The notes: a model not told the origin generated them from the letters alone. 64,000 bases of DNA from Protoeuglena noctilucae (GCA_958009085.1 OY253676.1:186001-250000); one strand, 5' to 3'. Shown: positions 14,099 through 50,650, counted from the first letter of the stretch. Translations and numbers: made by a program.

Positions 14099-14331
14099 GG
14101 GTTGCGCGAGTCGACGTGCGCAGTGCCTTCACACCAGCTAGCGGGGCACCTGCTGCAGAAACGCAAGCTGCAAGGCCAAAATCACCGAGAGTGCAGTCGC
14201 AGCAGCAGCCAGGGCAGGACGCCGTCCGGCCATTGAATCCCTGCAACGCCTCTGGTGCAAAATGCCAAAGAGCAGCCGTGGCGACCCGCATAGGCACCCC
14301 GCATGGCGTTGGGCGCGTCTGAACAGGCTAG

Positions 14332-28700: not shown

Positions 28701-31700
28701 GTGAGCCGCGCGGACAAGGAGCTCACGATCGAGCACGAGCTGGGCAAGGTCGAGGCTGTGTGGCGCGAGCAGCAGTTCGACTTGTTCAAGTACGTCAAGA
28801 ACAACGAGGACCGCGGCTGGTGCCTGCGGAGCGTGGAGGGCATCACGACGCTGCTCGAGGACATGCACATGAACCTCTCGAGCATGATCGCGTCGCCGTT
28901 CGTGGGCCCGTTCCTCTCCGCGGTCCAGGAGTGGGAGAAGAAGCTCGGCCTGATCGAGGAGTCGATCGGCGTGTGGATGCACGTGCAGCGCAAGTGGATC
29001 TACCTCGAGTCCATCTTCGTGTCGGACGACATCCGGCAGCAGCTGCCGCAGGAGGCCAAGCGGTTCGACGACATCGACCGCGCGTGGAAGAAGATCATGA
29101 CCGACGTGGCCAAGAACACCAACGTGCTGCAGGCCTGCCTGGCCGAGGGGCGCCTCGAGACGCTCTCCGCGCTCGCCGACAAGCTCGAGAGCTGCCAGAA
29201 GAGCCTCAGCGAGTACCTCGACACCAAGCGGTGCGCCTTCCCGCGCTTCTACTTCATCTCCGATGACGAGCTGCTCTCCATCCTGGGCACCAGCGACCCC
29301 ACGAGCGTGCAGGAGCACATGCTCAAGCTGTTCGACAACTGCGCACAGCTCAAGTTCGGCCGGGGCAACAAGACGGTGGTCGGCATGACGAGCGCCGAGC
29401 GTGAGGGGTTTGACTTCGCCGAGCCGGTGGCCATCGAGGGCGCCGTGGAGGGGTGGATGACGGGCGTGGAGCGCGCGATGCGCGACAGCCTCTACGACCT
29501 CACGCGCACGGGGGTCTTCATGTACGCGCGCTCCGACCGCGCCCGGTGGATCCGGGAGAGCCTCGGGATGCTGACGCTGGCGGGGTCGCAGGTGTGGTGG
29601 ACCTGGGAAACGGAGGACGTTTTTAAGCGCGTGCAGGCGGGCAACAAGCACGCGATGAAGGAGCTCCTGGCCAAGCTGAGCCGACAGCTGGGCGACCTGA
29701 CGACGATGGTCCGCACCGATTTGGACGACCTGACGCGCCGCAAGGTCAACACCCTGGTCATCATCGACGTCCACGCGCGCGACATCATCGATACCTTCGT
29801 CCGCGACTCGGTCATGGACATCCGGGAGTTCGCCTGGGAGTCGCAGCTGAGGTTCTACTGGGAGCGCGACGCGGACAACATGTCCATCCGGCAGTGCACG
29901 GGCGTGTTCCGGTACGGCTACGAGTACATGGGACTCAACGGCCGCCTCGTCATCACGGGCCTCACGGACCGCTGCTACATGACCCTCACCACCGCCCTGA
30001 CGTATCGCCTGGGAGGCGCCCCCGCGGGCCCCGCGGGCACCGGCAAGACCGAGACGGTCAAGGACCTGGCCAAGTCCATGGCCATCCAGTGCGTGGTCTT
30101 CAACTGCGGCGAGGGCCTGGACCACCGCGCCATGGGGTCCAACTTCTCCGGCCTGGTGCAGTGCGGCGCCTGGGGATGCTTCGATGAGTTCAATCGGATC
30201 GAGCCCGACGTGCTCAGCGTGGTGTCGAGCCAGATCAAGCAGATCCAGGAGGCGCTCAAGAACGCCCACGGGCAGGACCGGGCGCGGTTCAACTTTGAGG
30301 GCCGCGACATCACGATCGACACGCGCACGGGCATCTTCATCACGATGAACCCGGGGTACGCCGGGCGCACGGAGCTGCCCGACAACCTCAAGGCGCTCTT
30401 CCGCCCCGTCACCATGGTCGTCCCCGACAAGGAGCAGATCTGCGAGAACATGCTTTTAAGCGAGGGGTTCGACATGGCCAAGATGCTGGCGCGCAAGATG
30501 ACGGTGCTGTACAAGCTGGCGCAGGAGCAGCTGTCCAAGCAGCACCACTACGACTTCGGCCTGCGCGCGCTCAAGTCGGTGCTGGTCATGGCCGGGTCGC
30601 TCAAGCGCGGCGCGGGCGGCATGTCGGAGGAGCTGGTGCTCATGCGGGCGCTGCGGGACATGAACCTGCCCAAGTTCGTCTTCGACGACGTGCCGCTGTT
30701 CCTGGGCCTGATCGGGGACCTGTTCCCCGGCATGGACTGCCCCCGGGTGCGGTACGAGACGTTCAACGACGCGGTCGAGAAGGATTTGGAGAAGAATGGG
30801 TACGTGGTACTGAGTCAGCCGTCGGGGCAGGTCGACAAGGTGGTGCAGCTGTACGAGACGATGATCACGCGCCACACGACGATGGTCGTGGGGCAGACGG
30901 GCGGCGGCAAGTCCGTCATCCTCTCCACGCTCCGCAATGCCCAGACCAAGCTGGGCAAGAAGACCACGCTGTTCGTCATCAACCCGAAGGCCATCACTAT
31001 CGACGAGCTGTACGGGGTGCTCGACAAGGACACGCGCGACTGGACCGACGGCCTGCTGTCCAACGTCTTCCGCGAGTGCAACCGCCCGCTGCCCGCGGGC
31101 CGCGACGAGGCGCGGTACATCGTCTTCGACGGCGACGTGGACGCCAAGTGGGTCGAGAACATGAACTCGGTCATGGACGACAACAAGCTCCTCACGCTGC
31201 CCAACTCGGAGCGCATCCGGCTGCAGGACCACTGCAAGCTCCTCTTCGAGGTGTTCGACCTCCAGCACGCGTCGCCCGCCACCATCTCCCGCTGCGGCAT
31301 GGTCTACGTCGACTCGCGCAACCTGGGGTACGACCCGTACGTGCAGCGGTGGCTGGCGCGCCACGAGCACGCCGGCGAGCGCGAGGCCCTCCGGCCCTTG
31401 CTGGCCAAGTTCCTCAAGCCCCTCGTGGACTTCGTGCTCGAGGGAGCCGACGCGTTCGAGGACAAGCTCGTCCGGCGCCCGCGCATGAGCGTGCCGCTGA
31501 CGAACCTCAACATGGTGACGCAGTGCCTGCACCTGCTGTCCGCCATGCTCGGCCGCGACGGCGCCGTCACGGCCATGGACGAGGGCGCGGTCAACACGGA
31601 CGTCCTCGAGGCCATCCTGGTCTTCTGCCTCGTCTGGTCGGTCGGGGCGGCCGTGTCCGAAGAGACCGATTTCAAGGACCGGTCGAGATACGACGAGTAC

Positions 31701-34700
31701 CTGAAGAAGGTGTCCGGGCGGGCCATCCAGGACGCGGACAAGGTGCAGCCCACGCACCTGCCCAACCGGAGCCTCTACGAGTACTGCTTCGACGCCGGCG
31801 AGCGGTGCTGGCGGCGTTGGTCGGCGTTCGTGACGCCCTACGAGCCGCCGGTTGACGGGAAGTTCTCGAAGATTCTGGTGCCTACCGTGGATACGGTCCG
31901 CACCACGTGGCTGCTCGACACGGTCGTGCGCACGGGGCGGCCCTGCCTGCTGGTGGGGCAGTCGGGGACCGCCAAGTCCGTCACGGTGTCCAATTACCTG
32001 GCGCACCTGGACCGGCAGGAGTGGACGAGCCTGGCGCTGGCCTTCTCGAGCCGCACCACGTCCATGGCGGTGCAGACGGCGATCGAGGACTCAACGGAGA
32101 ACGTGACACGCGACACTCTGGCGCCCGGGTTCGGCAAGAAGATGGTCATGTTTGTCGACGACCTCAACATGCCCAAGGTCGACCTCTACGGCACGCAGCA
32201 GCCCATCGCGCTCCTCAAGCTCTTCGTGGAGCGCAAGGGCCTTTACGACCGGGGCAAGGAGCTGTCGTGGAAGAGCGTCAAGAACGTCCAGCTCGTGGCG
32301 GCGATGGGGCCACCCGGAGGGGCGCGGAACCCCGTGGACCCCCGTTTCCTGTCGCTCTTCAGCGTTTTCGAGGTGCAGTTCCCCTCCAACGCCAACCTGT
32401 CGAGCATTTTCGAGAGCATTCTCACGGAGCACGTCCGCAAGCTGCCCCGTGAGGTGGCCCTGGCCTCGGAGTCCCTCACCGCGGCCACCCTGGAGCTCTA
32501 CAACTACATCGTCGAGAAGCTCCCGCCGACGCCGAGCCGCTTCCACTACATCTTCAACTTGCGCGACCTCAGCCGCGTCTTCCAGGGCTTGCTTCTTGCC
32601 ACGCCCGACAAGATGCCCACGCCGGCGGCGTTCCTGCGCCTCTGGCGCCACGAGTGCATGCGCATCTTCCACGATCGCCTCATCTCCGCGGAGGACAAGG
32701 CCATCGTCCTGGGCAAGATTGCCTCCATCGTCAACGAGCGATACGGATCCACCAAGTGAGCGTTGGCATGGGCCGCGGCTGCGCTCCCCTGTGCCTGCGC
32801 CTGCGGGCCCTCTCTGCGGCCCGTGTCTGCTCGGACCTTGCCGCGTTCTTCAGCACCCTCCTTTGCGCAGCGCACGCCACGCATTGCTGCCGTCAACCCC
32901 AACTCCCCACACCGCCCTTCAGCACTCCCGCCCGCTCACCCCTTAGCTGCCCCTCGACTGCCAGCCCATGTCATCCACCGCATCGCTCACCCTCATCTCT
33001 CTCCCTCCCCTCCCCGCAGGGATGCCATCCTGGCGGACCCCATCCTGTTTGGCGACTACTTGACGGCGCTGAACCCCGACGAGGTGCGTCTCTATGAAGA
33101 CCTCGAGTCCTACGACGCCGTTAAGCCCGTGATGGAGGAGATCCTCGAGCAGTACAACCAGAAGAAGAAGAAGATGAACCTGGTGTTCTTCGACGATGCA
33201 TTGGAGCACCTGACGCGCATCCACCGCACGATACGCCTTGAGCAGGGCAACTGCCTGCTGGTGGGCGTGGGCGGGTCGGGCAAGCAGAGCCTGACGCGCC
33301 TGGCGGCCTTCACGGCGGGCTTCGACGTGTTCGAGATCACGCTGACCCGCGGCTACGATGAGGTGGCGTTCCGTGAGGACCTCAAGACGCTGTACGGGCG
33401 CCTCGGCCAGGAGAACAAGCGAGTTGTCTTCCTCTTCACGGACGCGCACGTGGCCGACGAGGGGTTCCTGGAGCTCATCAACAACATGCTCACGGCCGGG
33501 ATGGTGCCGGGGCTGCTGGAGCAGGCAGACCGCGACGCGGCGGTCAACTCGGTGCGGGACGAGTGCGAGCGCCTGGGGCTGCCCAACACCCCCGAGGCGC
33601 TGTGGGCCTACTACGTGTCCAAGTGCCGCAACAACCTGCACGTGGTCCTGGCCATGTCGCCCGTGGGAGAGACGCTTCGCACACGGTGCCGCAACTTCCC
33701 CGGCATGGTCAACAACACGGTCATCGACTGGTTCGAGCCATGGCCGGAGCAGGCGCTGCAGTCCGTGGCCTCGGTGTTTTTAGAGGACGTGGCGCTGCCC
33801 GAGGAGGTGCGCCCTCAGGTGGTCGAGCACATGGTGCAGGTGCACCAGAGCGTGCGGCACTTCTCGCAGCGCTTCCTCGAGGAGCTCCGCCGCCACAACT
33901 ACGTCACGCCCAAGAACTACCTGGACTTCATCCACAACTACCGCAAGTCGCTGGTGGACGGCCGGCGGCAGGTGGGCGAGATGTCGGCGCGCCTGGACGG
34001 CGGCCTGCAGAAGCTCATCCAGGCCTCGCAGGAGGTCGCGGAGCTGCAGGAGAACCTGAACGCGGCCTCCGTGGTGCTGGCGGCCAAGACCAAGGAGGTC
34101 AACACCCTCATCGCGGAGATCCGCACGAACAAGGCCGAGGCGGAGGCGTCATCGGCCGAGGCCAAGAAGCGAAGCGAGGAGGTGTCGGTGATGAGCGAGC
34201 GCATCGCGGTGGACAAGGCCGAGGCCGAAGAGGCCCTGGACGCGGCTCTGCCTGCGCTCGAGGCCGCCAAAGAGGCGCTCAACAACATCGACGCCGACCA
34301 GATCAACGTGATCAAGTCGTACGCGAACCCGCCCAAGCTGGTGCAGACGGTGGTGGAGATGGTGGTGATCATCAAGAAGCACGGCGGCGGCAAGGACGTG
34401 TCGTGGGCCGCCGGCAAGTCGATGCTCAACCAGGCGGGCTTCCTCAACTCCCTCATCCTCTTCAACCTCGACACCCTCGAGGACCGGTCCATCTCCCGCG
34501 TCGAGAAGCAGTACCTGCGGCGCCCGGAGATCGTCCACGACGAGACGGTGCGTGGCGCGTCGCTCGCCGCGTACGGTCTCTTGCAGTGGGTCAAGGCCAT
34601 GGTCAACTACCACAACTTGGCGAAGGACGTGGCGCCGAAGCGCGCGGCGGTCGAGAAGGCGACGCGGGACCTGCAGTCGGCGAAGAAGGAGTTGAAGGAG

Positions 34701-37700
34701 ATGGAGACGAAGGTGGCGCAGTTGACGGAGCTGCTGGCGCAGCTGGACGCGCAGCTGCGGGAGAAGACGGTGGAGCAGGCGCAGCTGCAGCACGACAACG
34801 ACGTGATGCAGCGGCGGCTCGAGTCGGCGAGCAAGTTGATCGACGGGCTGGGCTCCGAGAAGCGGCGGTGGGGCGAGGAGCTGCAGCGGCTGGCCAGCAA
34901 GAAGGAGAAGCTGGTGGGCGACTGCTTGCTCACGAGCTCCTTCCTGTCGTACGCGGGCGCCTTCACGCACGACTTCCGGTGCCGGATGACGTACGAGGAG
35001 TGGCTCGAGGACGTGATGCGGCGGCAGCTGCCCGTGAGCCGCCCTTTCCGCCTCGAAGAGCTGCTGACGACCGAGGTGGAGATGGCGCAGTGGGCCTCCG
35101 AGGGTTTACCGAGCGACGAGCTGTCGATCCAGAACGGTATCCTCACGGTCCGCGCCAGCCGCTTCCCGCTGTGCATCGATCCCCAGATGCAGGCCGTGTC
35201 GTGGGTCAAGCGGCGGGAGGGCTCGCGCCTCGACGGCCGCGTCAAGACGTTCAATGACAGCGACTTCCTCAAGCAGCTGGAGCTGGCGATCCAGTACGGG
35301 TTCCCGTTCCTGTTCGAAAACCTCGACGAGTACATCGACCCCGTCATCGACCCCGTTTTGGAAAAGAGTCTCGTGGCGCAGCCGAGCGGGCGGTTCGCGG
35401 TGCGTCTGGGCGACAAGGACGTCGAGTGGGACAACAACTTCCGCCTCTACATGTGCACCAAGTGGGCCAACCCGCATTACGGCCCGGAGGTGTCCGGCAA
35501 GACCATGGTCATCAACTACGGCGTGACACAGCAGGGTCTCACGGAGCAGCTGCTCAACGTGACGGTGCGCCACGAGCGGGCGGACCTGGAGGAGCGCCGC
35601 GAGTCGCTCATCCACAGCATGAGCGAGGCCCAGGCGGAGCTGAAGGATTTGGAGGACACGCTCCTGAGCGAGCTGTACAAGGCGGAGGGCCTGATCCTGG
35701 ACAACCGCGAGCTGATCGAGACGCTGGAGAAGGCCAAGGCGCGGTCCGTGGACATCTCGCGGCAGCTGGCCGACTCAAAACGTGCTGCGACTGAGATCGA
35801 GGAGGTGCGGCAGCGGTACGTCCCCGCGGCCAAGCGCGGCGCGATCCTCTTCTTCGCGATGGCCTCGCTCAGCGCCATCAGCAACATGTACGAGTACTCC
35901 CTGGCGAGCTTCCTCACCGTGTTCCGGGGGTCGCTCGAGCACTCGCGCAAAGACGCCGTGCTGGACGTCCGCCTGCGCAACATCGTCGACAGCCTCACCT
36001 ACGACGTCTACTCCTACACGTGCCTGGGCCTCTTCGAGCGCCACAAGCTCACCTTCAGCTTCCAGATGGCGATTCGCCTGCAGGAGGGCGAGGGGCAGAT
36101 GGTGCCCCACTTCCTGGACTTCTTCCTCAAGGGCAACCTGTCGCTCGAGAAGTCCGAGCGCAAGCGGCCCTTCACGTGGCTGCCCGAGCAGGGCTGGGAG
36201 GACATGCAGCGGCTGGCGGCGCTCCCGCCCGCCCCGGGCGCCGACCGCATGCCCCTGGCGGGCCTGGCGGACTCCGTCGCGGCGCACGAGGCCCAGTGGC
36301 GCGCATACTACGACAGCGAGGCCCCCGAGGAGCTCCCGGTGCCGTTCTTTGAGGAAGAGATTGGGACGTTCGAGCGCCTGATGGTGTTGCGGTGCCTGCG
36401 CATGGACCGCGTCACGCTGGGGGTGCAGCTGTACGTGAGCCACCACATGGGGGATAAGTACGTCGCCCCGCCGGTCCAGGACTTCCGCAGCATCTTCCGG
36501 CAGTCGTCGCCGACCACCCCGGTCGTGTTCGTGCTGTCGCCGGGCGCCGACCCCTCCTTCGACCTCATCCGCCTCGGTGAGGAGATGGGGTTCAAGCTGG
36601 GCGCCAAGCTGAAGAGCATGGCGCTCGGGCAGGGCATGGGGCCTAAGGCGAAGGAATACATTGAGCTGGGCGCGACACGCGGGCTGTGGGTGCTGTTGCA
36701 GAACTGCCACCTGCTGCCCAAGTGGCTCAAGGACCTGGAAAAGATCCTGGAGAAGGTCCTGGACCCGCACCCCGACTTCCGCCTGTGGCTGACCACGGAG
36801 CCCACGGACAAGTTCCCCTTGGGCATCCTGCAGCGGTCGCTCAAGGTGGTCACCGAGCCGCCCAACGGCCTCAAGCTCAACATGCGCGCCAGCTACTCCA
36901 AGATCACGGACGAGTCGCTGGGGGAGTGCCCGCACGCGGCCTTCAAGCCCCTGGTGTACGTGCTTGCTTTCTTCCACGCGGTGGTGCAGGAGAGGCGCAA
37001 GTACGGCAAGCTGGGGTGGAACGTGCCGTACGACTTCAACGAGACCGACTTCCGCATCTCCATGGCCCTCATCAGCACCTACCTGGGCAAGCAGGTCGAC
37101 AACAACGACTCGCTCATCCCGTGGGGGACCCTGCGCTACCTTATCGGGGAGGTGAGGTGGTTGGTTGGTTGGCTGGTTGGTTGACGACATGGGTAGTGGG
37201 GGCGGCTGCCTTGGTCGAACCACCCCTGTGCTGCGCTCTGTACCTCTTTCACGCGCTCTCTTTGTCTGGCTTTTGTTGCGCACACCGGTGCCTTTCTCGC
37301 CATCACTCGGTTCCCACTCTCACCCTCACCCTCACCCTCACCCTCACTGCCACCCTCACCCTCACCCTCCCCCGCAGGCCATGTACGGCGGCCGCGTGTC
37401 GGACTCGTTCGACCGCCGCATCCTCACCACCTACCTCGACGAGTACCTCGGGGACTTCCTGTTCGACACCTTCCAGCCCTTCCACTTCTTCAAGAACGAG
37501 AACGTCGACTACTCGGTGCCGGACACGGGGCCCCGGAACGTGTACGTGGGGGCGATCGAGGCCTTACCGCTCGTGCAGACGCCCGAGGTGTTCGGCCTGC
37601 ACCCCAACGCCGACATCTCCTACTACTCCTCGTCCACCAAGGCCCTGTGGTCGAACTTGGTCGAGATGCAGCCCCGCACCGGCACCTCGGGCACCGGGAT

Positions 37701-38813
37701 GAGCCGGGAGGAGTACATCGGCAACGTGGCCAACGACGTGCGCGACCGCATCCCCGACCCCTTCGACCTGGCCGTGCTGCGGAAGGAGGTCGGGACGCCC
37801 ACGCCCGTGCAGGTCGTGCTGCTGCAGGAGCTGGAGCGGTGGAACTTGGTCATCCACGTGATGCGGACGTCGCTTAAGGACCTGTCGCGTGCGCTGGCGG
37901 GGGAGATCGGGTTCTCATCCAGCCTCGAGGCGCTCGCGAACAGCCTCTACAACGGCCAGCTGCCCGTCAGCTGGGCCAAGGCGAACCCCAAGACGCAGAA
38001 GATGCTGGGGTCGTGGATGCTGTGGTTCGAGAGGCGGTACCGCCAGTACCAGAGTTGGGCGCGCGAGGGGGAGCCCAAGGTCATGTGGATCTCCGGGCTG
38101 CACATCCCGGAGACGTACATTGCCGCCCTGGTGCAGACGGCCTGCCGCGACAAGGGCTGGCCCCTCGACAAGAGCACGCTGTACACCCAGGTGCGAGGCG
38201 CGGTGCATTGCATGGCGATGAGTCACTGCGAGTCACAGGCTGAACAAACGCTAGAAGACATGCAATCGGATCGCATGTTGTCAGCGAGATTTAAACCCCT
38301 GTCGCGTTCTCCCCTCGCAGGTCACGCGCTTCGCGAGCGCGGACCAGGTCAAGGAGAAGCCCAAGTACGGCTGCTACATCCAGGGGCTGTACCTGGAGGG
38401 CGCGGCATGGGACGCAGACCGCAACATGCTCACCAAACAGAACCCGAAGGTCCTGGTCACGGAGCTGCCCATCTTGCAGATCGTGCCGATGGAGGCGTCC
38501 AAGCTCAAGCTCTCCAACACCTTCAAGGCGCCTGTGTACACCATGCAGGACCGCAGGAACGCGATGGGGGAGGGGCTCGTGTTTGAGGCCGACCTCGCCA
38601 CCGGTGAGACCCCTGCAGTGGCTGGCTGCGTGCGGTCTCGCGCATGTTTCGATTACATTGCACTTCATGCCTTCGTCATCTTTGGATCGCGATGCGTGCT
38701 GGTTGCCGGACCGGGTGTCTGACCCCGCCACGCCTGCCCTTGCGCACGCAGACCAGCACCCCAGCCACTGGGTGCTCCAGGGCGTGGCCCTGTGCCTCAA
38801 CATCGACACGTGA
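22768..38813 (+). CDS. DNAH10: Axonemal inner-arm dynein I1/f alpha heavy chain (DNAH10 / Chlamydomonas DHC1 orthologue), about 14 exons
   Basis: P-loops GPAGTGKT, GQTGGGKS, GQSGTAKS and GVGGSGKQ; WGCFDEFNRI; FITMNPGYAGRTELPDNLK; stalk coiled coil. N-terminal DLREAWLVSRV and C-terminal HPSHWVLQGVALCLNIDT* resemble DNAH10 as I recall it. Confidence 0.93.
37159..37183. repeat. (GGTT)n microsatellite in a dynein intron
   Basis: ggttggttggttggctggttggttg. Confidence 0.8.
37320..37370. repeat. (CACCCT)n hexamer repeat at the 3' end of a dynein intron
   Basis: caccctcaccctcaccctcaccctcactgccaccctcaccctcaccctcc. Confidence 0.9.
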
Positions 38814-39717
38814 TGCGCTAGATCTCTGGAGAGTCACGTCAGAGATCGTGCTTTGTGATGTCTAGACCTAACAGGTCGCACCCATGCTGCTTTTCTGTCC
38901 GGACCTCTTTAGATGCGCCCTTTCTGCCACAGCCACGTAGCGCTCCACTCTGCTGCCGCAGTCAGCACCCCACACTTCCTCGCGACGATAGTCTTCTTTG
39001 AATAGCCGGTGATCATGGCGGTGCATCTTCGTTCGGAAAGCCCCCCAACAGCTGCCGCGCCCTGGCAAGCCACGCAGCCGGGGCTGCCGCGTGCAGGGCG
39101 GCAGCCCTGTGGGGGAAGTTCGAGATGCTCTCCTTCCTGATCAGCCGGGGCGGAGCGCGGCCCCGACCATCGCATGAGCGCATGACCCAACCAACGACCC
39201 AACCAACTCACTTCAAAGGTGCTGGGCCCTTAGGAACGAGGGCGGGTGCCCGTTAGGGGACGCAGGGCTGCACCAACGCAGCGGGGCCTCCAGCAAAGGT
39301 AGCGGGGCAGCAGGCGGGGCCCGCTGCAAGGCTCACAAGGGGGCCGGGCCGGGGCATAAACACTAGCTCTACCTCAGGGGAGGGCTGAACGGGCGACCGA
39401 GCAGCGGAGAGGTGCGGGTGAGAGGCGCCCGGACACGAGAGAGGGCAGCACAATGCAGCGAGCAGAAATGCGCGGGCGGGCAAGTGGAGAGGGCTGCAGC
39501 AAGAAGGCAAGCAGCGAGGCAGCGAGGCAGCGAGCAGGGCGCGGCGGGGGTGGCCAAAAGCGGACGAGCAGGAGGTGCGGCAGGCGGCATGGCGCTGCGC
39601 GCTTCCCCGGCGAGCTGCTCGGCAACGAGGCGCCGCCAGGCAGCGGCGGTGCGTGAGCCAAACGGGCACCGCGCACGGGAGGGAAGCTGCCGCTGGGCAG
39701 TGGCGCGGAGGGCCCCA

Positions 39718-40764
39718 TCACGCGGGCTGAAGGTCCCACGGCGCAGCCCAGCAGAGGGTGACGACCCCTTCTGCGTGGACAGCACTCCTGACCGCGTCAT
39801 CCATGTTGGGAGCAGCGAGGACGGCGGTCACGCCCGCCCTGGCCCCCGCCGCCAGCGCGGCCTCGACCTCCCCCTTGGTGGGTGGCGTGGCGTCCCACTG
39901 TGCCGCCAGCGCAGCCACCTCCGCCATCACACAATCCAGCAAGAACGCGAATACTGGGCCCCCCCTACCCGTGCGTCCCTCCTGGAGAAGGGCGCCCCAA
40001 CCGCCCCTGCTGCTGAAGAGTTGGGCCCTTGCGGAGCCCTTCTTGCTCTTCGAAACCGCCTGTCCCGACACCAGGTTGACGAACTTGCCGGCCACCGGCC
40101 AACTAACGCTCCCGGTCTTGCATTCCACCACAAAAGGCTTGAGCTGCACCTTGCACTTGCCCCCCTCCCCCTCAAACACCACCAACACCCCCGCCCCATC
40201 CACCTCCCTACGCTTCTCGCCACCACCCTTCACCTCGCAGAAAAACACCTGCCCTCCAACCACGACACCCCGCACGACAACCCCATCCTGACCCAAGCCC
40301 CCACCAAGCCGCTGCTCCTCCCGTGCCGCCAGCATTTCTGCTGCAGCCTGAACCGACGCCTGCTCCGTCCCCCAGGCGACGCCCCGCCGGGAGCCCTCCA
40401 AACTTCTGATCGACCTGGACATAATATTCATCTCATCTCCCACACTCCCAACCCAACCATTGAAGTCCTTCCGCAAACCCGTGACCCTCTCCTCCAGGGT
40501 ATTAAGCTGGCCTTTGACACCCGTGACCGTCTCCTCCAGGCTCTTGAGCTGGCCTTCGAACTTGGAGAATCCAAGCCGAACCTCGGAGAATCCAAGCCGG
40601 AGCTCGGCCAGGAGCTCGGCATTGGAGGCGTTTGCCGAAGCCTGCTGCTTCTCTGCGCCAAGCAAAGAACACAGCGCGCCGTCACCCAGCGGCGAGGGTA
40701 GACCCCCGAGACGAGCAGCACTGGCAGCTCCACCAAAGCAAAACAGGCGAGCGGCTGCAGTCAT
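39718..40764 (-). CDS. Coiled-coil + PD-(D/E)XK (restriction-endonuclease-fold) nuclease-like protein, 348 aa, apparently intronless
   Basis: Heptad repeats (LRLGFSE VRLGFSK; LEETVTG VKGQLNT LEERVTG) are followed by GTEQ ... REVDGAG ... FVVECKT, i.e. the E...D...ExK pattern. The ORF is G/T-rich, unlike the flanking host genes. Confidence 0.6.
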   Translation of the reverse strand: MTAAARLFCFGGAASAARLGGLPSPLGDGALCSLLGAEKQQASANASNAELLAELRLGFSEVRLGFSKFEGQLKSLEETVTGVKGQLNTLEERVTGLRKDFNGWVGSVGDEMNIMSRSIRSLEGSRRGVAWGTEQASVQAAAEMLAAREEQRLGGGLGQDGVVVRGVVVGGQVFFCEVKGGGEKRREVDGAGVLVVFEGEGGKCKVQLKPFVVECKTGSVSWPVAGKFVNLVSGQAVSKSKKGSARAQLFSSRGGWGALLQEGRTGRGGPVFAFLLDCVMAEVAALAAQWDATPPTKGEVEAALAAGARAGVTAVLAAPNMDDAVRSAVHAEGVVTLCWAAPWDLQPA

Positions 40765-42299
40765 GGCCTACAGCTATGCCAGGCTTGGCCAGCCATGGCC
40801 GGAGCTGCAGCACTCACCGGAACTTGAGGCGTCGGTGCCCCCCCCTCCCGCGTGCCCGCCCGCCTGCCTGCCCGTGCTCTCCGGGGCCGGCTCCCCACTC
40901 CCTTGCGATCCATCCCCACGCTTGGCTCGCAGAGCCAAGACGACCCGCGTCGCTCTGTTATAACCCATGAGGGGTCTCTGCAGCAGAAGCGGCGACAGCG
41001 CCCCGTCGAAGCCGCCCGCACACGCTTGTCAGCGAAATACAAGACAGCTGCCGCGCTCTCTGCGCCGCACCGGTGGGAGTGCAGGTCCCGGGGGCCCCGA
41101 CGCCCGCATGGCCGCAGTAGTGGAAAGCAACGGAGCTACGGCGATGCGTCTTGACGAAAATGCGCGCCCGGAACTCCAGGCGTGGGCAGCCTGCCCGAGC
41201 ATCTCTGCGGGCCAGCAGCTCGCGTTCGCAGGAATCGACTTCCAAGTATCCTCCAGTCGGGTACCCAGAAATGCAATCAGCAGTCTGAGGGCGGTCGGAA
41301 GGCGCGCGCGTCGGAAGGCGCGCTGAAAGACTGGCACCGCTGTCAGCCCCGAGGCTGTACCGGCCCTGGGTGCCAGAGGTATCACCAAGTTAATGCTCCG
41401 GCCGGCCACGACTTAATGCCATAAATTTCTTATAGCGCTCTTATTTGTCAAAAGGTCGTCGTGGTGCATCAGATGGGCATTTCAACGCATGTGGAAGCGC
41501 GACAGCCCCCACCAATACCCGCCCACAAGAAGCCACACCAGGGACAGATGAGGGCTCATGTCATGGATCTTGCTGTGAAGGCGGTTGATGAAACCGCGTG
41601 TGCATTTTCAGGCTCCGAAGCTGCCGCATCTGTCAGGTAATGCCTTGTACCCTGAGGGCCGTCTGCGGACATTTGTGCACCGTGCGACGCACGGAACCTC
41701 CAGAGACATGTATCATGGCATTACTACGGTAGTCACGGAAGCAGAGATTATGGGGCAGCCCCGCTGGAGTGGGGAGGAGGACGCACGAATTAGCGCAGCA
41801 TGCTACCTGGTGGGATGGCTGGCGCGTCGCCGTCTCCACGGATGGAAACGCCTGATAGATGATAGCATCCTTATCATTTATTCGATCTCGAACAGCAGTA
41901 TGTAAACGGATGGTCCGTTCATGTGAAAATGCCGATTCATGTGTGGGAGCTAAGAAAGCGATGCGCCGTGCGCGACGCGGGGCCCTGTGCACGAGATTGT
42001 GCTCGCAGTAACGGCGGCTGGCATGTAGACGCCTACAGGGGCTGCTTGAGCCATAACGCGCGTGTTTCTTGACAGGGCGGCAGACGTGCCCCACCGTATT
42101 GGGGCAGATGCAGCACTCCGGGGCTGAGCATGTACTGCGACAGTTATTGTATATCTCTGGCAACGCTCATATGATTTGGACTTGCCGCTGGCCGTCGTAG
42201 GGGGGGCTGATGCGTGCTTTCCACTCGTCGCTACACAACCCAACAATTAATACGATGCAATAGTCAGAGAGATGCAAGGCAGCTGTACTTCTTAATTGC

Positions 42300-45200
42300 C
42301 AGAAGCTTCTTCAATCGCTCAAGCGTATCGGGGGCTGGGCGGCAGGCTGGGGCGCTCGCCAGGCGTTCCTGGCTACCCAGGGGAAGCCAGAGACCTCGTT
42401 GCTATCGTCGATCTTTCTCTTTAGTTCCAAAAATCTGCATGCAACGCACGACGTGACAGTGGCGGATGCTGGCGTCGGGGTGGGGCCATGCCCACAGCAC
42501 AGAATCACCACAGCAACTCCTTGGCCTCACCTACACGTCCTCGACGCGGCGCGTCCTGCCACCCGCCATCCTGGTCGTTTCCAAATGTGCAAGGTACCTC
42601 TTGTTGGCCACGGCGTTGCCGAGTGCAGCACGCACACACCCACCCCTCGTCTCTTCCAGCACCAGCTTCGCCGCCGACGCATCAAATTTCCCCTTGCAGC
42701 CAACCACCAGCCCCGCAGCGTCAGCCAGTACCACAGCCGTGGGCCCCCCTGTCCTCTCAGGGTCGTCCACACCCCACTTGACCTCATCGATGTTCCACCC
42801 TTCCAGACCTCCCGGCAGAGCGGCGATGAAATTCCCGACGAGGCCGAGCAGGTCAGCTGGAGCGGACGCCATGGGCCCTTCGCATGGAATCACAACAGCT
42901 TGCTTGTGGGCCTTGTCGTAGCACGTCAGGAACCAGCGCTCACCCACCCGCCGAGGCCAGATGATGGCGTCGGCATCCGCCACGGTGGCCATCCCCGCGC
43001 CCCATTTGTTGAGCACCTTCTTCTCGTGCGCGGGTCCGTCGAAGAGGAGCCCCCCCCCATCGGTCACCGCTGCAGTCGATGGCAAGAAGAGGACGGAGCT
43101 GGTGTACAGCTGCGGCAGCGTGTTGCGCAACCGGCGATGCCTGTCCTGGATTAGCACCATCGCGGCGTCGACGAAGTTGGGGGACCCAGGGAAGTTGCCA
43201 AGGATGCTCTGCACGTCGGCGGCGGTGCACACGCTCTGCGGCTGCCCTCTCACTTGCTGCCACGGGACGGTCAGCACTGGGTCGTCCACTCGGTTGATGT
43301 TGTCAATGACGTTGTTGCGCTCCTTCGCGGCCTTGGCGATCATGTGGCGCGCACTGAATATGGCACGCGCCTCGGGGGTGACACTGTCGGAATCGTGCGG
43401 CACGGTGAGGTTGAGGCGCTTCCGCAAGAGGCGGATGCGCCGCTCGCACTCGGCAAGAGTGCGGATCCCGTTTAAGCGCGTCACCACCTCGCCCAGGACA
43501 GAGCTCGACACCTGTGCGAAGTTATGCCTTACTGTGGCGTCCACCAAGGCCGTCATGAGCTTCTCGTCCTCCTCCCTTGTCCACACACGCGCGCCGGCGA
43601 TCTTGAAGCCCCTGGCCCGCAGCTCGTCGATGGTGAGCGAGATTGGCTCGACGTCTTCGAACATGGTGAAGGCTTGGGCCCGCGTCATCTTCACTGCGCA
43701 GCTGCGACGCATGGACTCTGCCACAGATCCCTCGTCAGCTTTGAGCCCGGTGTTGTGCTCGAAGGCCAGCTCGTCGAGCACGGCCTGGGCGATGTGCAGG
43801 CTCCGTGGAACGCGCAGGTCGATTCGCCCACGCAGGATGGAGTGGAAGGTCTCGTTGACGCTCGTCCCTTGCTGAATCCCGTGGTTCACGTGGATGCCCC
43901 ACAGCGCGTCCAGAACTGGGTGCTTGGCAATGGCCTCGATGGCGGCCCGGACGGGGGTCCCGAGGGCCAGGAGGCCCCCCACGTGCCGCTCGCTGGGACC
44001 AACGGATCCGGAGTCCTCCTCGGACTCCGCGTCCCCACCGTAGCCCGCCACGTGCCTTGCGAACCTCACCAATTCCTCTTCCCGCCGGGGTGCCTCTCTG
44101 GACCGTGTCACAGCGTACCGCTCAATGACCCGTTTCAGCTCTGTTGCAAGCTCCTCCGCGCTCCTGTAGGGCTCCTTGTTGCCGTGCACGGGGTTCCTCA
44201 CCGCCCCGCTCCGGTGAGACCTCACCAACAGGCGATTGAGTACGCCCCTGACTTCCGCCATGAAGGCGGTGCTGTCGGGGTGCGTCTGGTACTTCCGCAG
44301 CGCGTTCTCGACGCGGTGGATGACGTGCCACAGGTCCTGGATGACGCGGATGTTGTCGATGTCGCTGTCGTCGGGCACCTCCAGCCCCGCGGCGCGGCAC
44401 GCGCTCGCGGCGTGCTTCAGGGCGTCGCGCACGAACGACCCGTCCTTGGCAGTCGCGCTCCCGACGCAATCCACCGTCACCGACTCGGGGAAGCAGTTGC
44501 GGTGGTCGAGGAGGATCATCTCGAACACGCGCTTGAAGGTGTCGTGCGATTCGTCGGGTATGATGACTGCTGCGATGACGTCCCCCGTGCTCTCCCATGA
44601 CCGTCATTACCTTCGCAAGCACCCGGCACCGCCTCGGCTTGCCCAGGTACATGCGGCGTGCCACGACGTTGCTGGCGGCCTTGTACGTCACGTCGACCTT
44701 CCAGTGCCTCGAGTCCGGTCGCACCTTGGTGACGCCGCGAACTACTTTCTTTCGCAGCCACGCCTCCCGCAGCGTCGCCCTCGCGGTGCGGTCGTAGAAG
44801 ACAACGCCTCGCCGCACAGCCTCGCGGCCGTTGCTCATGACGCCAAGCTTAATGACCTTGGCGACGAGGGTACGAAGCTCCTCATTAACCCTGTGGTCCA
44901 CGCATAGGCCCTCGTCAGCGTGCACCGGATGGGGGAGACCCTCAATGTCGGGGACGTTCCATGGCCGGACTGGTGCTCCTGTCCCTCCCGATGGTGCCAC
45001 GCCGTCCATGTCAGGTCCCACGGGTTCCTCTGGAGCCTGGCTGTCACCGTTGGACGGTCCCTCCACCTCACGACGCCCTCCCACTTGCCCAACCGCCCCT
45101 CTCCCCCACGCACCCTCAGCGCCCGGCACGTCCGCCTCCACTGCTGCTGCAAAGCCATGCCCGGGAGGTACACCGATATGCTCGTCATCCCCTTCCCCAC

Positions 45201-47379
45201 TCCCGCCACGAAGCCGCAGAACGTCTCCCGGCCTGCCATGGTCGTCGACGCTTCCATGCGCGGGGGCGCTGCCGGCCCCTCCCCCGGGCCCCAACGCCGT
45301 CGAGACCTGCTGTCCCGTAGTCTGTAGGACCCCCCCATCCATGCTGGGGCCCGCTCCGACCACGCCCACGCCTCCCACGGATCGACCCATCCAGCCGCTC
45401 GGCCCTTCGAGCCCACCGTTGGCCACGAGCGGCAGGATGAGCCCCGCAGCCGACCCCGGCATCCCGCCCAGCGACCCCCACTGACCCATAGTGCTGCCCA
45501 TGGACCCTCCCACACCGATGCCCGCGCTGCCAAGACCGGCTGGGGTACGACCCACCACAGCGCCCATGCTCACGCCTCCCGGTGCTACCCGCCCGCCCCG
45601 TATCGAGGCCTCCACCGACCCTGTCGCCGTCTGAGGAACACCGGGACGCCCTGGACGCGATACGTTGCCGGCGCCCTGCTCCAGGCGTGGCTCGGTGGCT
45701 GCCTCGCGCCGCGGCGCAGCCCGCGCCTGGGCTGCGTCGTGCCTCATCACCCTGGACCCCGCGGCCTTGCGCTCCGTCCCTGTGTACCTCTCGCGCAGGC
45801 CGCACGGCGTCATGGGATTGCTCCTCAAGCCGCGCTTCACGAGCATCTCCGCTCCCCACGCACGACTCGTGTCGTAGTGCAGCCTCGGCAGGTCCGCCGA
45901 CTTGACTGGCAGTACCGTGGTCTCGTCGTCGGGGGCGTACCGCGCGAGGAGTACCTCGTGCATGAAGTCCGGCGTCGGGCGGACGCGAGCGTCAACGTCC
46001 CGCTTCTGCCACGTCGCCACGAGGACCTCCATGGACCCGTCCACGATGCGGCCGCCGTTGAGCCCGTAAGGGGTGCGCTGGATGTCGCGGTGCTGGATGC
46101 TGAGAGCCCAGCCTTGCTTCCTTAATGCTTCTATCTCCCCCATCTGTGTGATATTGAGGCGAAGCAACGCCTCCCCTTGGTAGGCCTTGTTACGTGCCAC
46201 CCACAGGCCGTGTACCAGATCCCTGAGAGATAGTAGATATGCCTGCAAGACTTGCAGCGACTCCTCCGTCAGCAAGTCCCAGGAAGCGCGGAACGTCCCG
46301 ACCAAGAAGATGACTTCGAGGACGGACGGCATGCGTCCAGGTATGCAGTTCACCTCTCGCTTCAAGAGAGGGACAGCCTTGATCCGGGGGGCGCCAGGCG
46401 CTGCAAAGCACGCCTCGAGCGCGGCCGTGGCGCTCGGCAGTTGACTCATGGCGATGCCTGCACCCTGCAAGTCCCCGGGCCACACATCCCCTCGCATGAT
46501 GCCCTGGAACGCCGCCCTTGGCTTGACAGGAACGTCAAGATGCTCATGAAAGCGACGCGCCAGCATGTCGATGGCGTCGTCATTGCAGAGGTGCCCGTCG
46601 GGGGGGACGTACGTCGTGTCGAACTCCTCAGGGCAGAAATTCTCGTCCTCGTCCTCGGAAGAGGAGCTGCTGCCAGTCTGGCCATCACCGTTGGCCACGT
46701 CCGTCCCGTGACCGTCGTCAGCCACATCCACCCCCCGCCCAGCGTCCGTCTCAGCTCCCGCGCCACCCTCTGAAAGGTCTTGGAATGCCTGGTTGGCCCA
46801 GTGCTGCTCTCGAGCCCCATCAGTGCGAGGCTTCGCACGGCTGCATCGCCGGAGCGCCTCCTCGACGATCTCCCCCGTGTCCACGGCAACGCCTTGGGCC
46901 CTGCAGAAGTCCGCGAGGTCGGACAGCCAGTCGGAAAGGGTATCTTCCCTCTCCTCGAGCTCGGCCTTCGCAGCCGCACGCACGTTGAACTTGTTCCTCC
47001 GATAGAGGGCATGGACGTGGCGGAGCCACGCGGGGTGCAGGCATACAGAGCATCTTCCCCCGCCCATCTCACTTGGAGGCCCGCTGCTCTCCCTGTCACC
47101 CAATCAACGGCATTCTAATGTGAAAGACTACTGTGCTTCGACGTCGGGCAGGCGCATAAATGCTCACCGGCGCTGACCGCTTTGTGCAGGCCAGACACTT
47201 CAGCGCAGCGCGGGAGCGATGGCGGGGCCGCCGGGGCCTCCGCCCGTCACGGCGGCCCTATGCTGTAGTGCACTTTAGGCCTGTACCAGCCGATTGGAGA
47301 TCCGGAGGGCCGCCCTCGTACCCCGAGCTTGGGCTGAGCGAGAGGCTGCTGTTGCCTCTACTCGCTTATTTGCCTCTAG
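42300..47379 (-). mobile_element. Putative DNA transposon of the DxxH-motif group (Mutator/Novosib/Sola2-like); boundaries approximate
   Basis: Intronless transposase ORF in an otherwise intron-rich genome, flanked by AT-richer DNA, with an abrupt composition change after 47380. No convincing TIR or TSD found by eye. Confidence 0.6.
42531..47067 (-). pseudogene. DDE-type DNA transposase polyprotein (~1500 codons) interrupted by a single +1 frameshift at 44582-44586
   Basis: Motifs KVDVTYK (D ~44693), VMTVMGEHG/DVIAAV (joined across the frameshift), VTVDC (D ~44470), IQDLWH (44325-44342) and GTSVNETFH (E ~43852). Then a Myb/SANT repeat WTREEDEKL...RTLAECERRIRLL and a Ulp1-like fold. First in-frame ATG at 47067. 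The frameshift could be an assembly homopolymer error. Confidence 0.75.
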
Positions 47380-47837
47380 TCTAGCTAATTAATTCAAAAG
47401 TCTTTGAGTTGTTGCATTTGTTGGGCTATCAAAGCCTTCCCCCCCGGTGCCTCGCTGTATACCTCTGGCACCCAGGGCCGCGCCGCCCTCGCCCTCAGAC
47501 GGAGACCAAGCCATGGTGGTGCCGCGAATCGTCTCAAATACGAGGCTTGGTACGGAGCATAGCGCTGCCTGGTCCCCGGGGGACACACGGGGCACGCTCA
47601 GACTGCAATTTGCGGGCGCCGGCGCAGCAAATGTTCCGCAGAGAGCAGGTCATGTCTTTGTCCAGACTCGTCTACATGCACATAAGTAAGTGCATGGTGT
47701 CACAAAACAATGGGTCTTTGTGGGAAATATTGCCGCTTCAGGTCAGCCAGCCTGTAGGCCAGCCTGCAGCGCTGGGCAGCCCCATGACCAGCTCGGTTCC
47801 GAGCAACTTCTGCAATAACATGATTTAAAGTCCCACG

Positions 47838-48110
47838 ATGGAATGCGCACTGATGGATAGCGGCGCGTGTGCCAACACCTGTACACCGGCCACCCTGGGG
47901 AAATATGCCGCATTGGGCCACCCACTCTCGACCCAGCACGTGGGCGGCTGCCACCCTCCAAACCGCCCTTGCGTCCGGAGACACCATGGCCCCCTACGGC
48001 AGCCACGCGTTGCCGAGTACGTGTGCTTATCGTGTGCGAGGCCCCTGCCTCGTGGGTACCACCCGCCGCGGCCTGGGGATGGCCCACGCCCTCCACCCCT
48101 CGTACACCTC
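47838..48110 (+). pseudogene. Degenerate retropepsin (LTR-retrotransposon-like aspartic protease) relic
   Basis: ALMDSGACAN (active-site DSG), then in shifted frames ALASGDTMAPYG (flap-like), RVRVLIV and GLGMAHAL (ILG-like), in the expected order. Confidence 0.4.
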
Positions 48111-48590
48111 GTTGCGCATTGCCTTGTTCGGAGGGACGTCAGTTGGTGCCGCCCCAGTAACATAAAAAATGATGTATCGCAGGGGGTGGGACTTTCCATG
48201 CCGGGCAACTACAGGCAGCACATCCGGTTTGGGTCGTTATGGTACCTCGTCAAAGGCCATGAAGCCCCCTCTGCACGCCAAGTCGGAGTGAAGCCACTTG
48301 AGGATCAGCGTCAGGGTCCTGGTTCTCGAGCCACGTGTCGCTGCAGAGCGTGCAGGGACCCGAGAGGGTGTGCCCTTAACCCTGACGCCTGGAAAACAGC
48401 TTCAACCAGGACAATTTGGCCAGAAGTGAATGTAAGAGGGTAGGGCAAGGAAGGGGCAATGTCAACGACACGGGAAGAGCGAAAGGGAAGCGTTACGTTG
48501 GCATTCGAACAGCACCAGTCTCGCCACGCTCTCCGTACACACGCGAAGCACGTAGCACACACCATGTGCGGCACATCACCGTTGACTCAT

Positions 48591-50650
48591 TCAGTCGCTT
48601 TTGTCCGAGTCGTCGCCTCCATCTGACGAATCTGATGACGAGGACGATGACGACGTCGCGCTGGGATACCCCTGGTAGTCCCGCCTCGCATCAATGTCCT
48701 CCGCCACCCTCGCCAGGTCAGGGCGCTCCCTGCGGGGCTGAGCAGGGGTGATGCGGTGTGCGGTATGCTTGGCGACCCGTCACTCGCCATCGACACAGCG
48801 CCCACCACTCGCCACCAACACGCCACCCCCCGAGTCCCACTCGCCTTCTCAAGGCCTCGAGCCACCGCTGGGACGTCTTGGGCCGCCCCTTGCGCGTCCA
48901 CCGCCACGCCGCACCGAAGTTGGACGAAGCCACGTAGTTCTGCGTGACGGCCACGGTCGTGTCCAGATTCATCACGCAGTGCCACCAGCCGCAGGGCACG
49001 AAGATGGTCTCGCCCGGCTCCTGCACCACGTCGAGCGGCGCGGCGTGCGGCCACTCCAGGGTCTGCAAGCGACGAAAGCAGCGGCGGAAGCATGGCGCTT
49101 CACGGTCAAGACATGCCGCATGACATGCCACCACACTTGTCACTGCCACAGTCAGTCACCTTGGTCCTTGGGTACACTTCCTGGAACCACGTGCTCGCTT
49201 CCTTCTCCATCCCTGCTGGGACCAGGTCCGCACGGGGCACGCCCGGGGGATAGAGCGCCCACCGCTTGCGGCCCACGAGCAGGGCGTTCCAGGCGTGGGT
49301 GCTGCCGGGCACGAGGGGAGTGCAGTTTGCACAGGCACTGGGAAGATGGGGCATCCTCGACAGCCTTCATCACCCACCCCTCAGCCGCCACGCTGCCCCC
49401 TGCGCTCACCCGAGAGGGTCCACGTGCATGCAGGCGCCAGAGCGGGGCGGTCCAATCACGATCCACTTGTATGGGGGCCGGCGCCTCTCCCCCACGTACC
49501 TGCGACGGGCAACCAAGACATTGTAGACATGACTATGCGCTTATCTTATCGACCTGCTACCACGTGTGTCCCTCACTCACTTCAGCAGGTCTTCCTGGAA
49601 GAGCTCTGGGACGGCGTAGTCTTGAGCCAGCTCGCGTATCCCCGCACGCTCGGCAAACGAGCCCTCGAAGATGTAGAGAGGAGAGTCGTCGCGGCTGTGC
49701 TGCAGAGACGGCAGAAGATGCAGTGGAGAGGCACCCACCCATCACAGTGTCGTCCATCACAGCGCCCTGGCCGGACCGGCAACGCACCTTGGGGTGCTGG
49801 AGGAAGTCGTAGTAGTACTTGAACTTGAGCCGCACCGCGTATCCGTCGTCGTCCGTGCCGACCTTGAACTTGAAGTCCCCATACCTCTCTCGGAACCACT
49901 CCACCGTCCACTGCCGCGCCGCCGGCCAGTCGTCACTGCGTGCCAAGCGCTTCACGGTGTACTCAGGACCCGCTGCAATCGGACAACGACATTGTCAAGA
50001 ACAGGGAATCCACAGCCACACGCACCAGAGGCCCTGGATGATGACCGGGAGGCGGGCGCGCTCATACCGCGCCACGAACTCCCGGGGAGTGATGTCGCGG
50101 ATGTGCACGCGCGGGAGGCGGTCGTGGAGTCCGCTCGTGCTGAGGAAGGCGGGGATGCAAGCCAGCTGCGAGCGCGGGAGCTGGGTGCGTCTGCAAGCGA
50201 CACGCTGCGGGACGGCACGTGCATCCGTGCCCGCTCCGCAAAAACCTCGCCTTCCGCCGCTGCCAGTCGCCTCCCGTGACGCTTATTTCGCTCCTCACGC
50301 GCCGTTTGACCTTCCTGAGCTTTCGTTCGCGCTTCTCCGCCCACTGCGTTCTAGAGAAGCAGAGCAGCTCGCAGCGCGGGAGGCGCTCGCCAACCCGACT
50401 GACCCAAGCGGTTGAATGACATTGGCGAGGTGGACCTAGACACCATGCGCTGTTGCCGCCGCAGCAATCGCCGAAGAACCAGCGCCCGCACCTCCCCCTC
50501 GTCATCGGCGTCGTGGAGCCGCTCCAGCCGCGCGTCCAAGCGCACGAACACGATGCGCGACGTGTCCGCGGTTTGAGCACTCGTAGATGCGTCGTCCCCC
50601 CCGCTCTGGCTCTTCGTGCGCGCCGGGTACGGCACGGCGGCCTCCACCAT
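48591..50650 (-). CDS. JMJD6: JmjC-domain protein JMJD6/PSR (lysyl hydroxylase/arginine demethylase), multi-exon
   Basis: [57 protein letters not shown] (HxD), [49 protein letters not shown], and a poly-Ser tail [11 protein letters not shown]. Confidence 0.93.

Follow-up and report, generated by a model that had tools for sequence, protein, structure and literature searches.

Among DNA transposons whose transposase combines an acidic DDE triad with a (C/D)xxH motif behind the second aspartate, two well-described references are Muta1 of the Mutator superfamily, with the positions D214, D283, CxxH307, W401 and E419 (PMC5225508), and the P element transposase DmTNP, with D230, D303, D339xxH and E531, i.e., a spacing of 73/36/228 (PMC8230255). 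Ulp1-type protease domains have been reported from Mutator elements of hydra, lancelet, Arabidopsis, maize, rice and melon, from Ginger1 transposases, and from CACTA elements of grapevine and rice (PMC2836005, PMC2528002). A stretch of 64,000 nucleotides from the alga Protoeuglena noctilucae (GCA_958009085.1 OY253676.1:186001-250000; “the window” in the following) contains a 6,142-bp unit at 41350..47491 that resembles these systems in parts and matches none of them as a whole. The reading that we prefer, with a probability of roughly 0.7, is that the unit is an insertion bounded by terminal inverted repeats (TIRs) and encodes a disabled multi-domain protein, namely a (C/D)xxH-class DDE transposase whose family has not been described. 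An initial annotation of the window had proposed that the combination of domains may define an undescribed family of algal DNA transposons, which is overstated as regards the union of DDE transposase and Ulp1 domain in view of the Mutator, CACTA and Ginger1 examples (PMC2836005, PMC2528002). The novelty lies in the orphan sequence, in a protease-like domain that appears inactive, in the Myb-like repeat that separates this domain from the core, and in a long N-terminal part that bears a ubiquitin tail.

The unit is delimited by TIRs of 33 bp, located on the plus strand at 41350..41382 and on the minus strand at 47459..47491, which form the longest inverted repeat between 38 and 52 kb (33 nt, 85%). 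Their perfect core comprises 22 nt (41361-41382 and 47459-47480), the five outermost bases match too, and the element termini read CGAGG..CCTCG. In the entire window, a 21-mer of the TIR core occurs only at the two element ends, even if up to three mismatches are allowed, and it was matched in 0 of 100 shuffles. The absence of the unit is documented as well: a contig of run X1, which stems from another study, joins position 41353 to 47492 and skips 6,138 bases (41354-47491), with ACGC between the two sides. The joint corresponds to the outer TIR ends, within four bases (CGAG) that fit either reading. Since the joined contig breaks exactly at the outer repeat ends, the unit is a discrete insertion, and its description as a mobile DNA element by the initial annotation is borne out by the repeats and by this form that lacks exactly 41354-47491. 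A third state of the locus was observed in the metagenome run X8, in which a contig joins 41248 to 47614, skipping 6,365 bases; this form, from another population, is devoid of the element plus about 100 bases on each side.

The flanks of the element in X1 (40228-41353 and 47492-47990) are present in two variants of similar single-copy depth, one of which is identical to the window, while the other carries about 10% differences and deletions (joints 40301 to 40976 and 41087 to 41285). This suggests that a diverged second copy of the 1.6-kb flank stretch exists elsewhere in the genome, without the element. The contig word depth of 83 over the element and 69-79 over its neighbours fits a single copy, depth by itself not being a copy number. 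The 40 differences displayed over four runs (one further difference exists between runs) are all located at 40258-41550 or 47790-47989; 39 fall into the flanks, one (41550) into the 3' non-coding part of the element, and none lies between 41551 and 47789.

A different origin of the unit, be it as a piece of an endogenous virus or of a polinton-like element or as a host gene that happens to be framed by chance repeats, would be in line with the single known copy. Clan CE protease folds, to which the C-terminus discussed below would belong, are also found in large DNA viruses and in polintons. However, the unit spans only 6.1 kb with one open reading frame (ORF), and neither half of the protein nor the TIR core has a relative in 2.9 million viral contigs. 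Moreover, in the form that lacks the unit, the missing segment is bounded by the outer TIR ends, and the ORF is frameshifted, hence no maintained host gene, all of which leaves an origin of this kind highly improbable.

The coding part of the element consists of two overlapping minus-strand ORFs, 44122..47103 (993 aa) and 42531..44603 (690 aa), with the frame of the second being that of the first moved on by one base. Taken together, the minus-strand reading 47067..42531, from the Met at 47067-47065 to the stop codon at 42533-42531, is broken by a single +1 shift and would yield a read-through protein of approximately 1,507 residues. According to ORF and codon scans, part A (44607..47067, minus strand) extends from the Met to the shift and covers, apart from the N-terminal region and the linker, the first two strands (b1-b2) of the putative core, and part B (42531..44603, minus strand) contains the remainder including the stop codon. 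One base is skipped between 44606 and 44580, which is the sole stretch with both frames open and sensible, and which contains a run of five G at 44586-44582 (GGGGG, minus strand). From the frame join, the codon scan and the X1 sequence, this run appears to be the likeliest site of the one-base insertion that broke the frame. With the neighbouring dynein gene as training set, a codon-usage scan favours frame A down to about 44620 and frame B from about 44590. The ORF with one frameshift (42531..47067) and all of the motifs that the initial annotation had listed in it could thus be recovered, each at its expected position.

The ORF differs from background sequence in composition: in four of its five segments, the GC content at third codon positions (GC3) is 0.79-0.86 vs. 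0.45-0.49 at second positions (GC2), the linker segment being the exception (GC1 0.80, GC2 0.64, GC3 0.69). GC3 of the dynein gene is still higher (0.92-0.93) than in any segment of the element ORF. Furthermore, the element ORF uses GGA and GGT far more than host genes do, with 31 GGA per 1000 codons vs. 4.5 in sampled host genes, and its relative synonymous codon usage correlates with that of the dynein gene at 0.71. Coding periodicity is therefore present, and codon use is less host-like than that of the dynein gene. At the local GC content, stop codons are expected about once per 40 codons (an estimate), so that an open frame of this length exceeds chance. From about 45991 to 44835, however, no position has fewer than two open minus-strand frames, such that frame openness in this stretch is weak evidence for translation. 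A host-like intron candidate was not found in the linker under a crude rule, and the element contains no other ORF with coding signal.

The disrupted frame recurs in independent data. Another contig of run X1 matches 41310-47543 with 0 differences and 0 gaps, including an unchanged run of five G, and the 662-aa product beginning with the first Met behind the shift has been recorded from 12 contigs, with 662/662 identical residues. The frameshift is therefore not a quirk of one assembly. Neither the word-indexed protein search nor the exhaustive phmmer search described below, either of which could have admitted it, yielded a full-length unshifted protein, and no record of the exact 981-aa product from the first Met was found. 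The insertion would split the core between strands b2 and b3, which is why an active enzyme is impossible from this copy.

The shift might alternatively be a programmed +1 ribosomal frameshift at GGG-GGA-C, where a P-site Gly tRNA would slip on the G run while awaiting a rare GGA codon, and some full-length transposase would still be made. On GGGGG, a slipped tRNA would find a perfect new pairing, no Gly codon is rarer than GGA in the sampled host genes (4.5 per 1000), and the recurrence of the shifted state in 12 contigs would be accounted for. On the other hand, the element itself uses GGA often (31 per 1000), and GGGGGA is found in frame at two more places, 47061 and 45285. Downstream RNA structure is not apparent either (z-score -0.05, with 89 of 200 shuffles folding at least as well), the zero frame continues for 152 further codons, and the site is located inside the catalytic core and not between domains, so that programmed frameshifting is hardly credible.

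The encoded protein is an orphan in every collection searched. In Pfam, searched with the whole protein and eight fragments at E<=10, no family scored above its cut-off, and only Myb families appeared below it; NCBIfam and PHROGs gave no match to the element protein. The sequence search against the PDB retrieved no transposase, the core producing only chance matches to nanobodies (E 1.5-1.9). A word-indexed search of 5.8 billion proteins, in which the N-terminus was compared at near and shorter lengths and the core only at near ones, returned nothing or the element's own products, and an exhaustive phmmer search with the 690-aa part against 1,835,955,588 cluster representatives returned only the query itself. 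Metagenome, viral and prokaryote contigs likewise contained nothing or the element's own products, as did plasmids searched by tblastn, and neither the metagenome nor the viral contig collection contains the TIR core. A feature search in the Atlas with the N-terminal ORF reached a best score of 0.75 against an unnamed cluster, and between the N-terminal part and part B no similarity was detected. The proposal of an undescribed family is thus upheld to the extent that the ORF has no detectable relative in these collections and no full-length match to a described family was encountered.

The putative RNase H-like DDE core (43800..44739, minus strand) was delineated by motif order and spacing together with a crude sketch of strands and helices. 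A coordinate check places, all on the minus strand, the first Asp (in HWKVDVT) at 44694-44692, the second (in VTVDC) at 44471-44469, DLWH, a DxxH motif, at 44336-44325, the Trp at 43901-43899, and the Glu (in VNETFH) at 43853-43851. The resulting spacing is D-74-D-45-DxxH-142-W-16-E, with 206 from D2 to E. Predicted strands are WKVDVTY, RVLAKVMTV, VIAAVII, SVTVD and IRVIQ/LWHVI, with helices between them, and the predicted order b1-b2-b3-a1-b4-a2-b5 is the RNase H order, with Asp residues at predicted strand ends (Chou-Fasman, a crude method). Judged by these predictions, an acidic triad in canonical order and the secondary-structure context of an RNase H-like transposase are both present. The DDE assignment is motif-based only, since no transposase family, profile or structure matched.

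Compared to published transposases, the core has a mosaic character. As in Mutator elements with ULP1 domains, i.e., KI-MULE of Arabidopsis, MULE-ULP of melon, rice and grapevine, and MuDR of hydra and lancelet, the element is bounded by TIRs (PMC5225508, PMC2836005, PMC2528002). It also shares with them an xxH motif after D2 and a Trp 16-18 residues before the Glu (PMC5225508), as well as a Ulp1-type domain that follows the transposase or is fused to it (PMC2836005, PMC2528002). The spacing from Trp to Glu is 16 here vs. 18 in Muta1 (PMC5225508), and D1 and D2 are 74 apart vs. 73 in the P element and 69 in Muta1 (PMC8230255, PMC5225508). In contrast, D2 to xxH measures 45 vs. 21 in Muta1, and D2 to E 206 vs. 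136 (PMC5225508). The xxH motif is led by Asp, not by Cys as in Mutator; the TIRs are 33 bp long, and a duplication of 8-10 bp is not visible. The element protein does not match the Pfam families MULE, Transposase_mut or Peptidase_C48 at E<=10, or IS256 or other families in NCBIfam. Further differences from the Mutator elements with ULP1 are the seeming lack of catalytic residues in the Ulp1-like domain and an extra N-terminal part of about 700 aa, which carries the sequence VLRLRGG.

With the P element and THAP9, the element shares D(2)H instead of C(2)H and a long helical insertion between b5 and the helix of the Glu, at spacings of 73/36/228 vs. 74/45/206 (PMC8230255). The N-terminus has no THAP match, however, the PDB sequence search gave no match to the solved P transposase, and no 8-bp repeat is found at the element ends. 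Myb-like and C48-like C-terminal domains are not known as P element features. The Asp of DxxH and the long insertion domain therefore look P-like, and W-16-E looks Mutator- or hAT-like. Ginger1 elements resemble the present one by a C-terminal Ulp1 (or OTU) domain, by TIRs of 44-270 bp, by lengths of 3-7 kb and by being intronless in some cases, but their core is of the Gypsy-integrase type (YPYY, H2C2, GPY/F), for which the element has no Pfam match (PMC2836005).

Several other assignments were considered and discarded. The CMC/CMCT clade (CACTA, Mirage, Chapaev, Transib, Plavaka) was rejected, as there is no CxxC between D2 and E, no H(3-4)H, and the termini are CGAGG..CCTCG and not CA..TG (PMC12730594). 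Kolobok was rejected for want of TTAA at either element end (criterion in PMC9587614), and Zisupton/KDZ for want of an 8-bp repeat (criterion in PMC12730594) and of a Pfam match on the core. At the level of profiles, Mutator was discarded too, the whole protein and its fragments showing no similarity to MULE or IS256 in Pfam and NCBIfam at E<=10. A link to the introners of Micromonas was dropped, since no short element with the same repeat occurs in the window. A firm assignment to Mutator, P, hAT, CMC, Kolobok or Zisupton is thus not supported.

Downstream of the core, a Myb/SANT-like repeat (RVWTREED..., 43413..43589, minus strand) was proposed from sub-threshold Pfam and weak PDB matches. 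The surrounding 101-aa segment (43646-43344) gave E-values of 0.075 for Myb_DNA-bind_4, 0.15 for Myb_DNA-binding and 0.19 for Myb_DNA-bind_6, all below the cut-offs, and five weak PDB matches, which include Reb1 (E 0.43, spanning the whole repeat) and c-Myb (E 2). The identification of this repeat in the initial annotation hence agrees with the kind of families and proteins matched and falls short in that every match is sub-threshold, leaving a weak Myb/SANT call. The C-terminus (42576..43331, minus strand) is a Ulp1/Peptidase_C48-like domain, apparently without catalytic residues, as judged from the ESM Atlas model of the element protein, which has a predicted template modelling (TM) score of 0.38 and a mean predicted local distance difference test (pLDDT) value of 0.55. 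Residues 425-676 of this model align to clusters carrying PF02902 in 10 of the 10 rows shown; two of these clusters, with 246-247 aa (the first mostly Chlorophyta), yield TM-scores of 0.74 and 0.76 if the score is normalised by the cluster. In the structure search, all of the neighbours listed were C48 proteins. The model thus provides good fold-level support for a C48/clan CE-like fold, and the Ulp1-like C-terminus of the initial annotation is retained as a modelled fold and not as a sequence match: PF02902 does not match the element protein even at E<=10, and the PDB contains no sequence match for the domain. By eye, and against the C48 pattern of His, Asp/Gln and Cys in this order, Arg-Trp stands at the presumed His-Trp position and a Cys is missing at the expected helix start, which suggests that the domain is likely catalytically inactive.

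Some of the observations weigh against the preferred reading of the unit as a disabled DDE transposon. Not one transposase family, profile or solved structure matches any part of the protein even at E<=10, and the DDE assignment is built on five short motifs and the crude Chou-Fasman sketch. The C48 scores in the Atlas are below the bar at which the service would name a family, in a model with a mean pLDDT of only 0.55. At 45250-44950, a stretch that includes VLRLRGG, frame A scores below frame B on host codon usage. Only one copy of the element is known, and non-autonomous relatives were not found. At the insertion site itself, the sequences outside the TIRs read ...CAGCCC on the left and CCCTCAG... 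on the right, with at best the 3-bp CCC in common, and neither a target-site duplication of 8-10 bp nor TTAA is present at the ends. The joined X1 contig carries extra letters and is not a simple empty site; it appears to come from the diverged copy of the flanks and is therefore a poor guide to a target-site duplication. As to the termini, which the initial annotation had left to be defined, the TIR ends are now located, with only CCC in common in place of a clean duplication.

In light of these points, the unit could be a mobile TIR insertion whose ORF encodes no DDE transposase at all, with the pattern being fortuitous and the mover being either another part of the ORF (e.g., the N-terminal region) or an enzyme supplied in trans. 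The missing profile and structure matches and the lack of a recognisable target-site duplication fit this explanation, and the D/D/DxxH/W/E pattern is composed of common residues. However, the five motifs follow the canonical order and are embedded in a context of strand-strand-strand-helix-strand-helix-strand with Asp at strand ends, the W-16-E and D1-D2 spacings are close to those of Muta1 (18 and 69) and the P element (73 for D1-D2; PMC8230255, PMC5225508), and there is no other ORF with coding signal in the element. A fortuitous pattern is therefore considered unlikely, and a disabled DDE transposase remains the preferred reading.

The N-terminal part opens with CSVCLH (CxxCxH, residues 6-11, 47035..47052 on the minus strand by coordinate check), which matches no zinc-finger family. 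It is followed by a region of about 320 aa (45688..46650, minus strand) that is probably globular, as judged from the sequence, and over which frame A is best throughout in the codon-usage scan; this region has no Pfam, NCBIfam, PHROGs or PDB match, and its only homologues are itself. From translation, GC by codon position and the codon scan, the subsequent segment (44968..45687, minus strand) is a Gly-rich, acidic, low-complexity linker. Within it, at 45202..45222 on the minus strand, lies VLRLRGG, followed by SGEGDD. These seven residues are identical to the last seven of ubiquitin. From composition, VLRLRGG is expected 9e-5 times in the element ORF; the whole window, translated in six frames, contains LRLRGG a single time, and 30 block shuffles contain it 0.07 times on average and once at most. 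The motif, confirmed by coordinate check and by these composition and shuffle statistics, is thus real and improbable by chance, and its function is putative. A ubiquitin-like (beta-grasp) domain does not precede it, in that no Pfam ubiquitin family matches and only the seven-residue tail is present. Since its codons (GTT CTG CGG CTT CGT GGC GGG) are not host-preferred, the motif is presumably not a recent capture of the 3' end of a host ubiquitin gene.

Clan CE enzymes prefer or recognise diglycine (Gly-Gly) tails (PMC6759571), and the cleavage of RNA virus polyproteins by peptidases of the deubiquitinase type is an accepted idea (PMC3417536). The element could be read in analogy to the latter, i.e., as a long precursor that is cut after a Gly-Gly tail by a host or self peptidase of the deubiquitinase type (PMC3417536), with the differences that the element is known from sequence alone, that its own protease-like domain is apparently inactive, and that no ubiquitin fold precedes the tail. 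In the literature searched, a limited library, no paper was found that links ubiquitin-tail processing to a DNA transposase. In the most far-reaching version, the element would be the first member of a new superfamily-level lineage, in which a transposase precursor is freed or regulated via a mimic of the ubiquitin tail, either cut by host deubiquitinases after LRLRGG or with its tail clamped by the inactive Ulp1-like domain. In the clamping alternative, the tail would be held in cis or between subunits and would control the assembly of the transposition complex. This version as a whole is regarded as very unlikely.

A different account has a prospect not far below even: VLRLRGG could be a chance product of a GC-rich linker of low complexity that is rich in Leu, Arg and Gly, without any relation to ubiquitin, processing or the C48-like domain, and the element would be an ordinary transposon with a long spacer. 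The motif falls into the stretch in which frame A scores below frame B and at least two minus-strand frames are open, it lacks a preceding ubiquitin-like domain, its codons are not those preferred by the host, and its shorter versions are common by chance (six-frame counts of 2 for RLRGG and 11 for LRGG, vs. shuffle means of 1.9 and 14.1). Set against this account are the expectation of 9e-5 for the 7-mer in the ORF and of 0.07 for LRLRGG in the window, six frames, and the fact that the protein with the motif also has a modelled fold from a family that recognises Gly-Gly tails (PMC6759571).

Returning to the preferred reading, the element would represent a young, autonomous-type class II cut-and-paste DNA transposon, by now disabled, from a family without described relatives. 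Its single intronless protein of about 1,507 aa would begin with a lineage-specific N-terminal region with CxxCxH, continue with a disordered Gly-rich and acidic linker that carries a copy of the ubiquitin tail, and contain an RNase H-like core of the (C/D)xxH class, into which an all-helical domain of about 140 aa would be inserted, followed by the Myb/SANT-like repeat and a C48/Ulp1-like domain that would have lost its catalytic residues. In an intact copy, the 33-bp TIRs could be bound by the Myb-like repeat, the N-terminal motif or both, and the DDE core would excise the element and paste it in. The inactive protease-like domain might serve as a binding module for a Gly-Gly tail, belonging either to a host ubiquitin-like protein or to the element's own LRLRGG.

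The non-coding parts of the element (minus strand) are located at 47068..47458 on the 5' side (GC 0.59 over 47104-47458) and at 41383..42530 on the 3' side (GC 0.56, no coding signal). A 177-aa ORF in the latter has no Pfam match, and the 3' part contains no minus-strand TGTAA. Beyond the TIRs, the two ends have no subterminal motifs in common, and there are no notable tandem arrays; neither an Rfam family nor a tRNA was detected at 39-50 kb, and removing the element restores no long ORF. Metatranscriptome contigs (X9, X10) are colinear with 45455-45984, 46407-46573, 46816-47125 and 41460-41879, which by itself is no proof of transcription, parts without such contigs being uninformative.

The window is eukaryotic nuclear DNA from a GC-rich marine genome, probably of a green picoalga; the runs that contain it are marine metagenomes plus one labelled organism. 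The element occupies a lower-GC, gene-poor and non-coding stretch that separates a dynein heavy-chain gene from a JmjC gene. The former, on the plus strand at about 23.3-38.6 kb (23324-38583), has at least one GTGAGC...CAG intron (about 32756-32871); of the latter, an exon at 48718-49155 on the minus strand represents the last part of the JmjC-domain gene. A Pfam scan that covered 79 of the 103 ORFs of at least 200 aa (11 overlapping the element and 13 alternative-frame ORFs in the dynein gene were omitted) also identified a CBM20 starch-binding match, a GT47 match and EF3-type HEAT repeats in the window. To the right of the element, 47807-48273 shows a summed X1 contig depth of 330 vs. about 80 in neighbouring stretches, with several short divergent contigs and a 204-aa ORF without Pfam match, and probably represents a repeat with several copies. 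In the stretch that follows the dynein gene, at 39087-39531, metatranscriptome contigs of X9 and X10 skip 443 bases and carry 16 other letters, which would fit a variant, an indel or a spliced form. Finally, 14000-22000 forms a block with a GC content of 0.71-0.72, in which ORFs of 580-663 aa without Pfam match are open on both strands (14332-16320); the sole match near these ORFs is CBM_20 at 16562-17896 on the minus strand.

Transposons are scarce in the genomes of small marine algae, and the catalogue of enzymes that drive mobile DNA in them is poor. Without an RNase H-like fold, the finding described here would shrink to an unclassified insertion. If the DDE fold is true, the element would add a new branch to the (C/D)xxH group (hAT, Mutator, P, Kolobok), and it would offer a natural case for the role that the recurrent Ulp1 domains of transposons assume when they are no longer proteases. 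The ubiquitin tail inside a precursor provides a concrete hypothesis that is cheap to test. More generally, a protein of 1,500 aa in a TIR element without a relative among 1.84 billion representatives indicates that whole transposase lineages are as yet unsampled.

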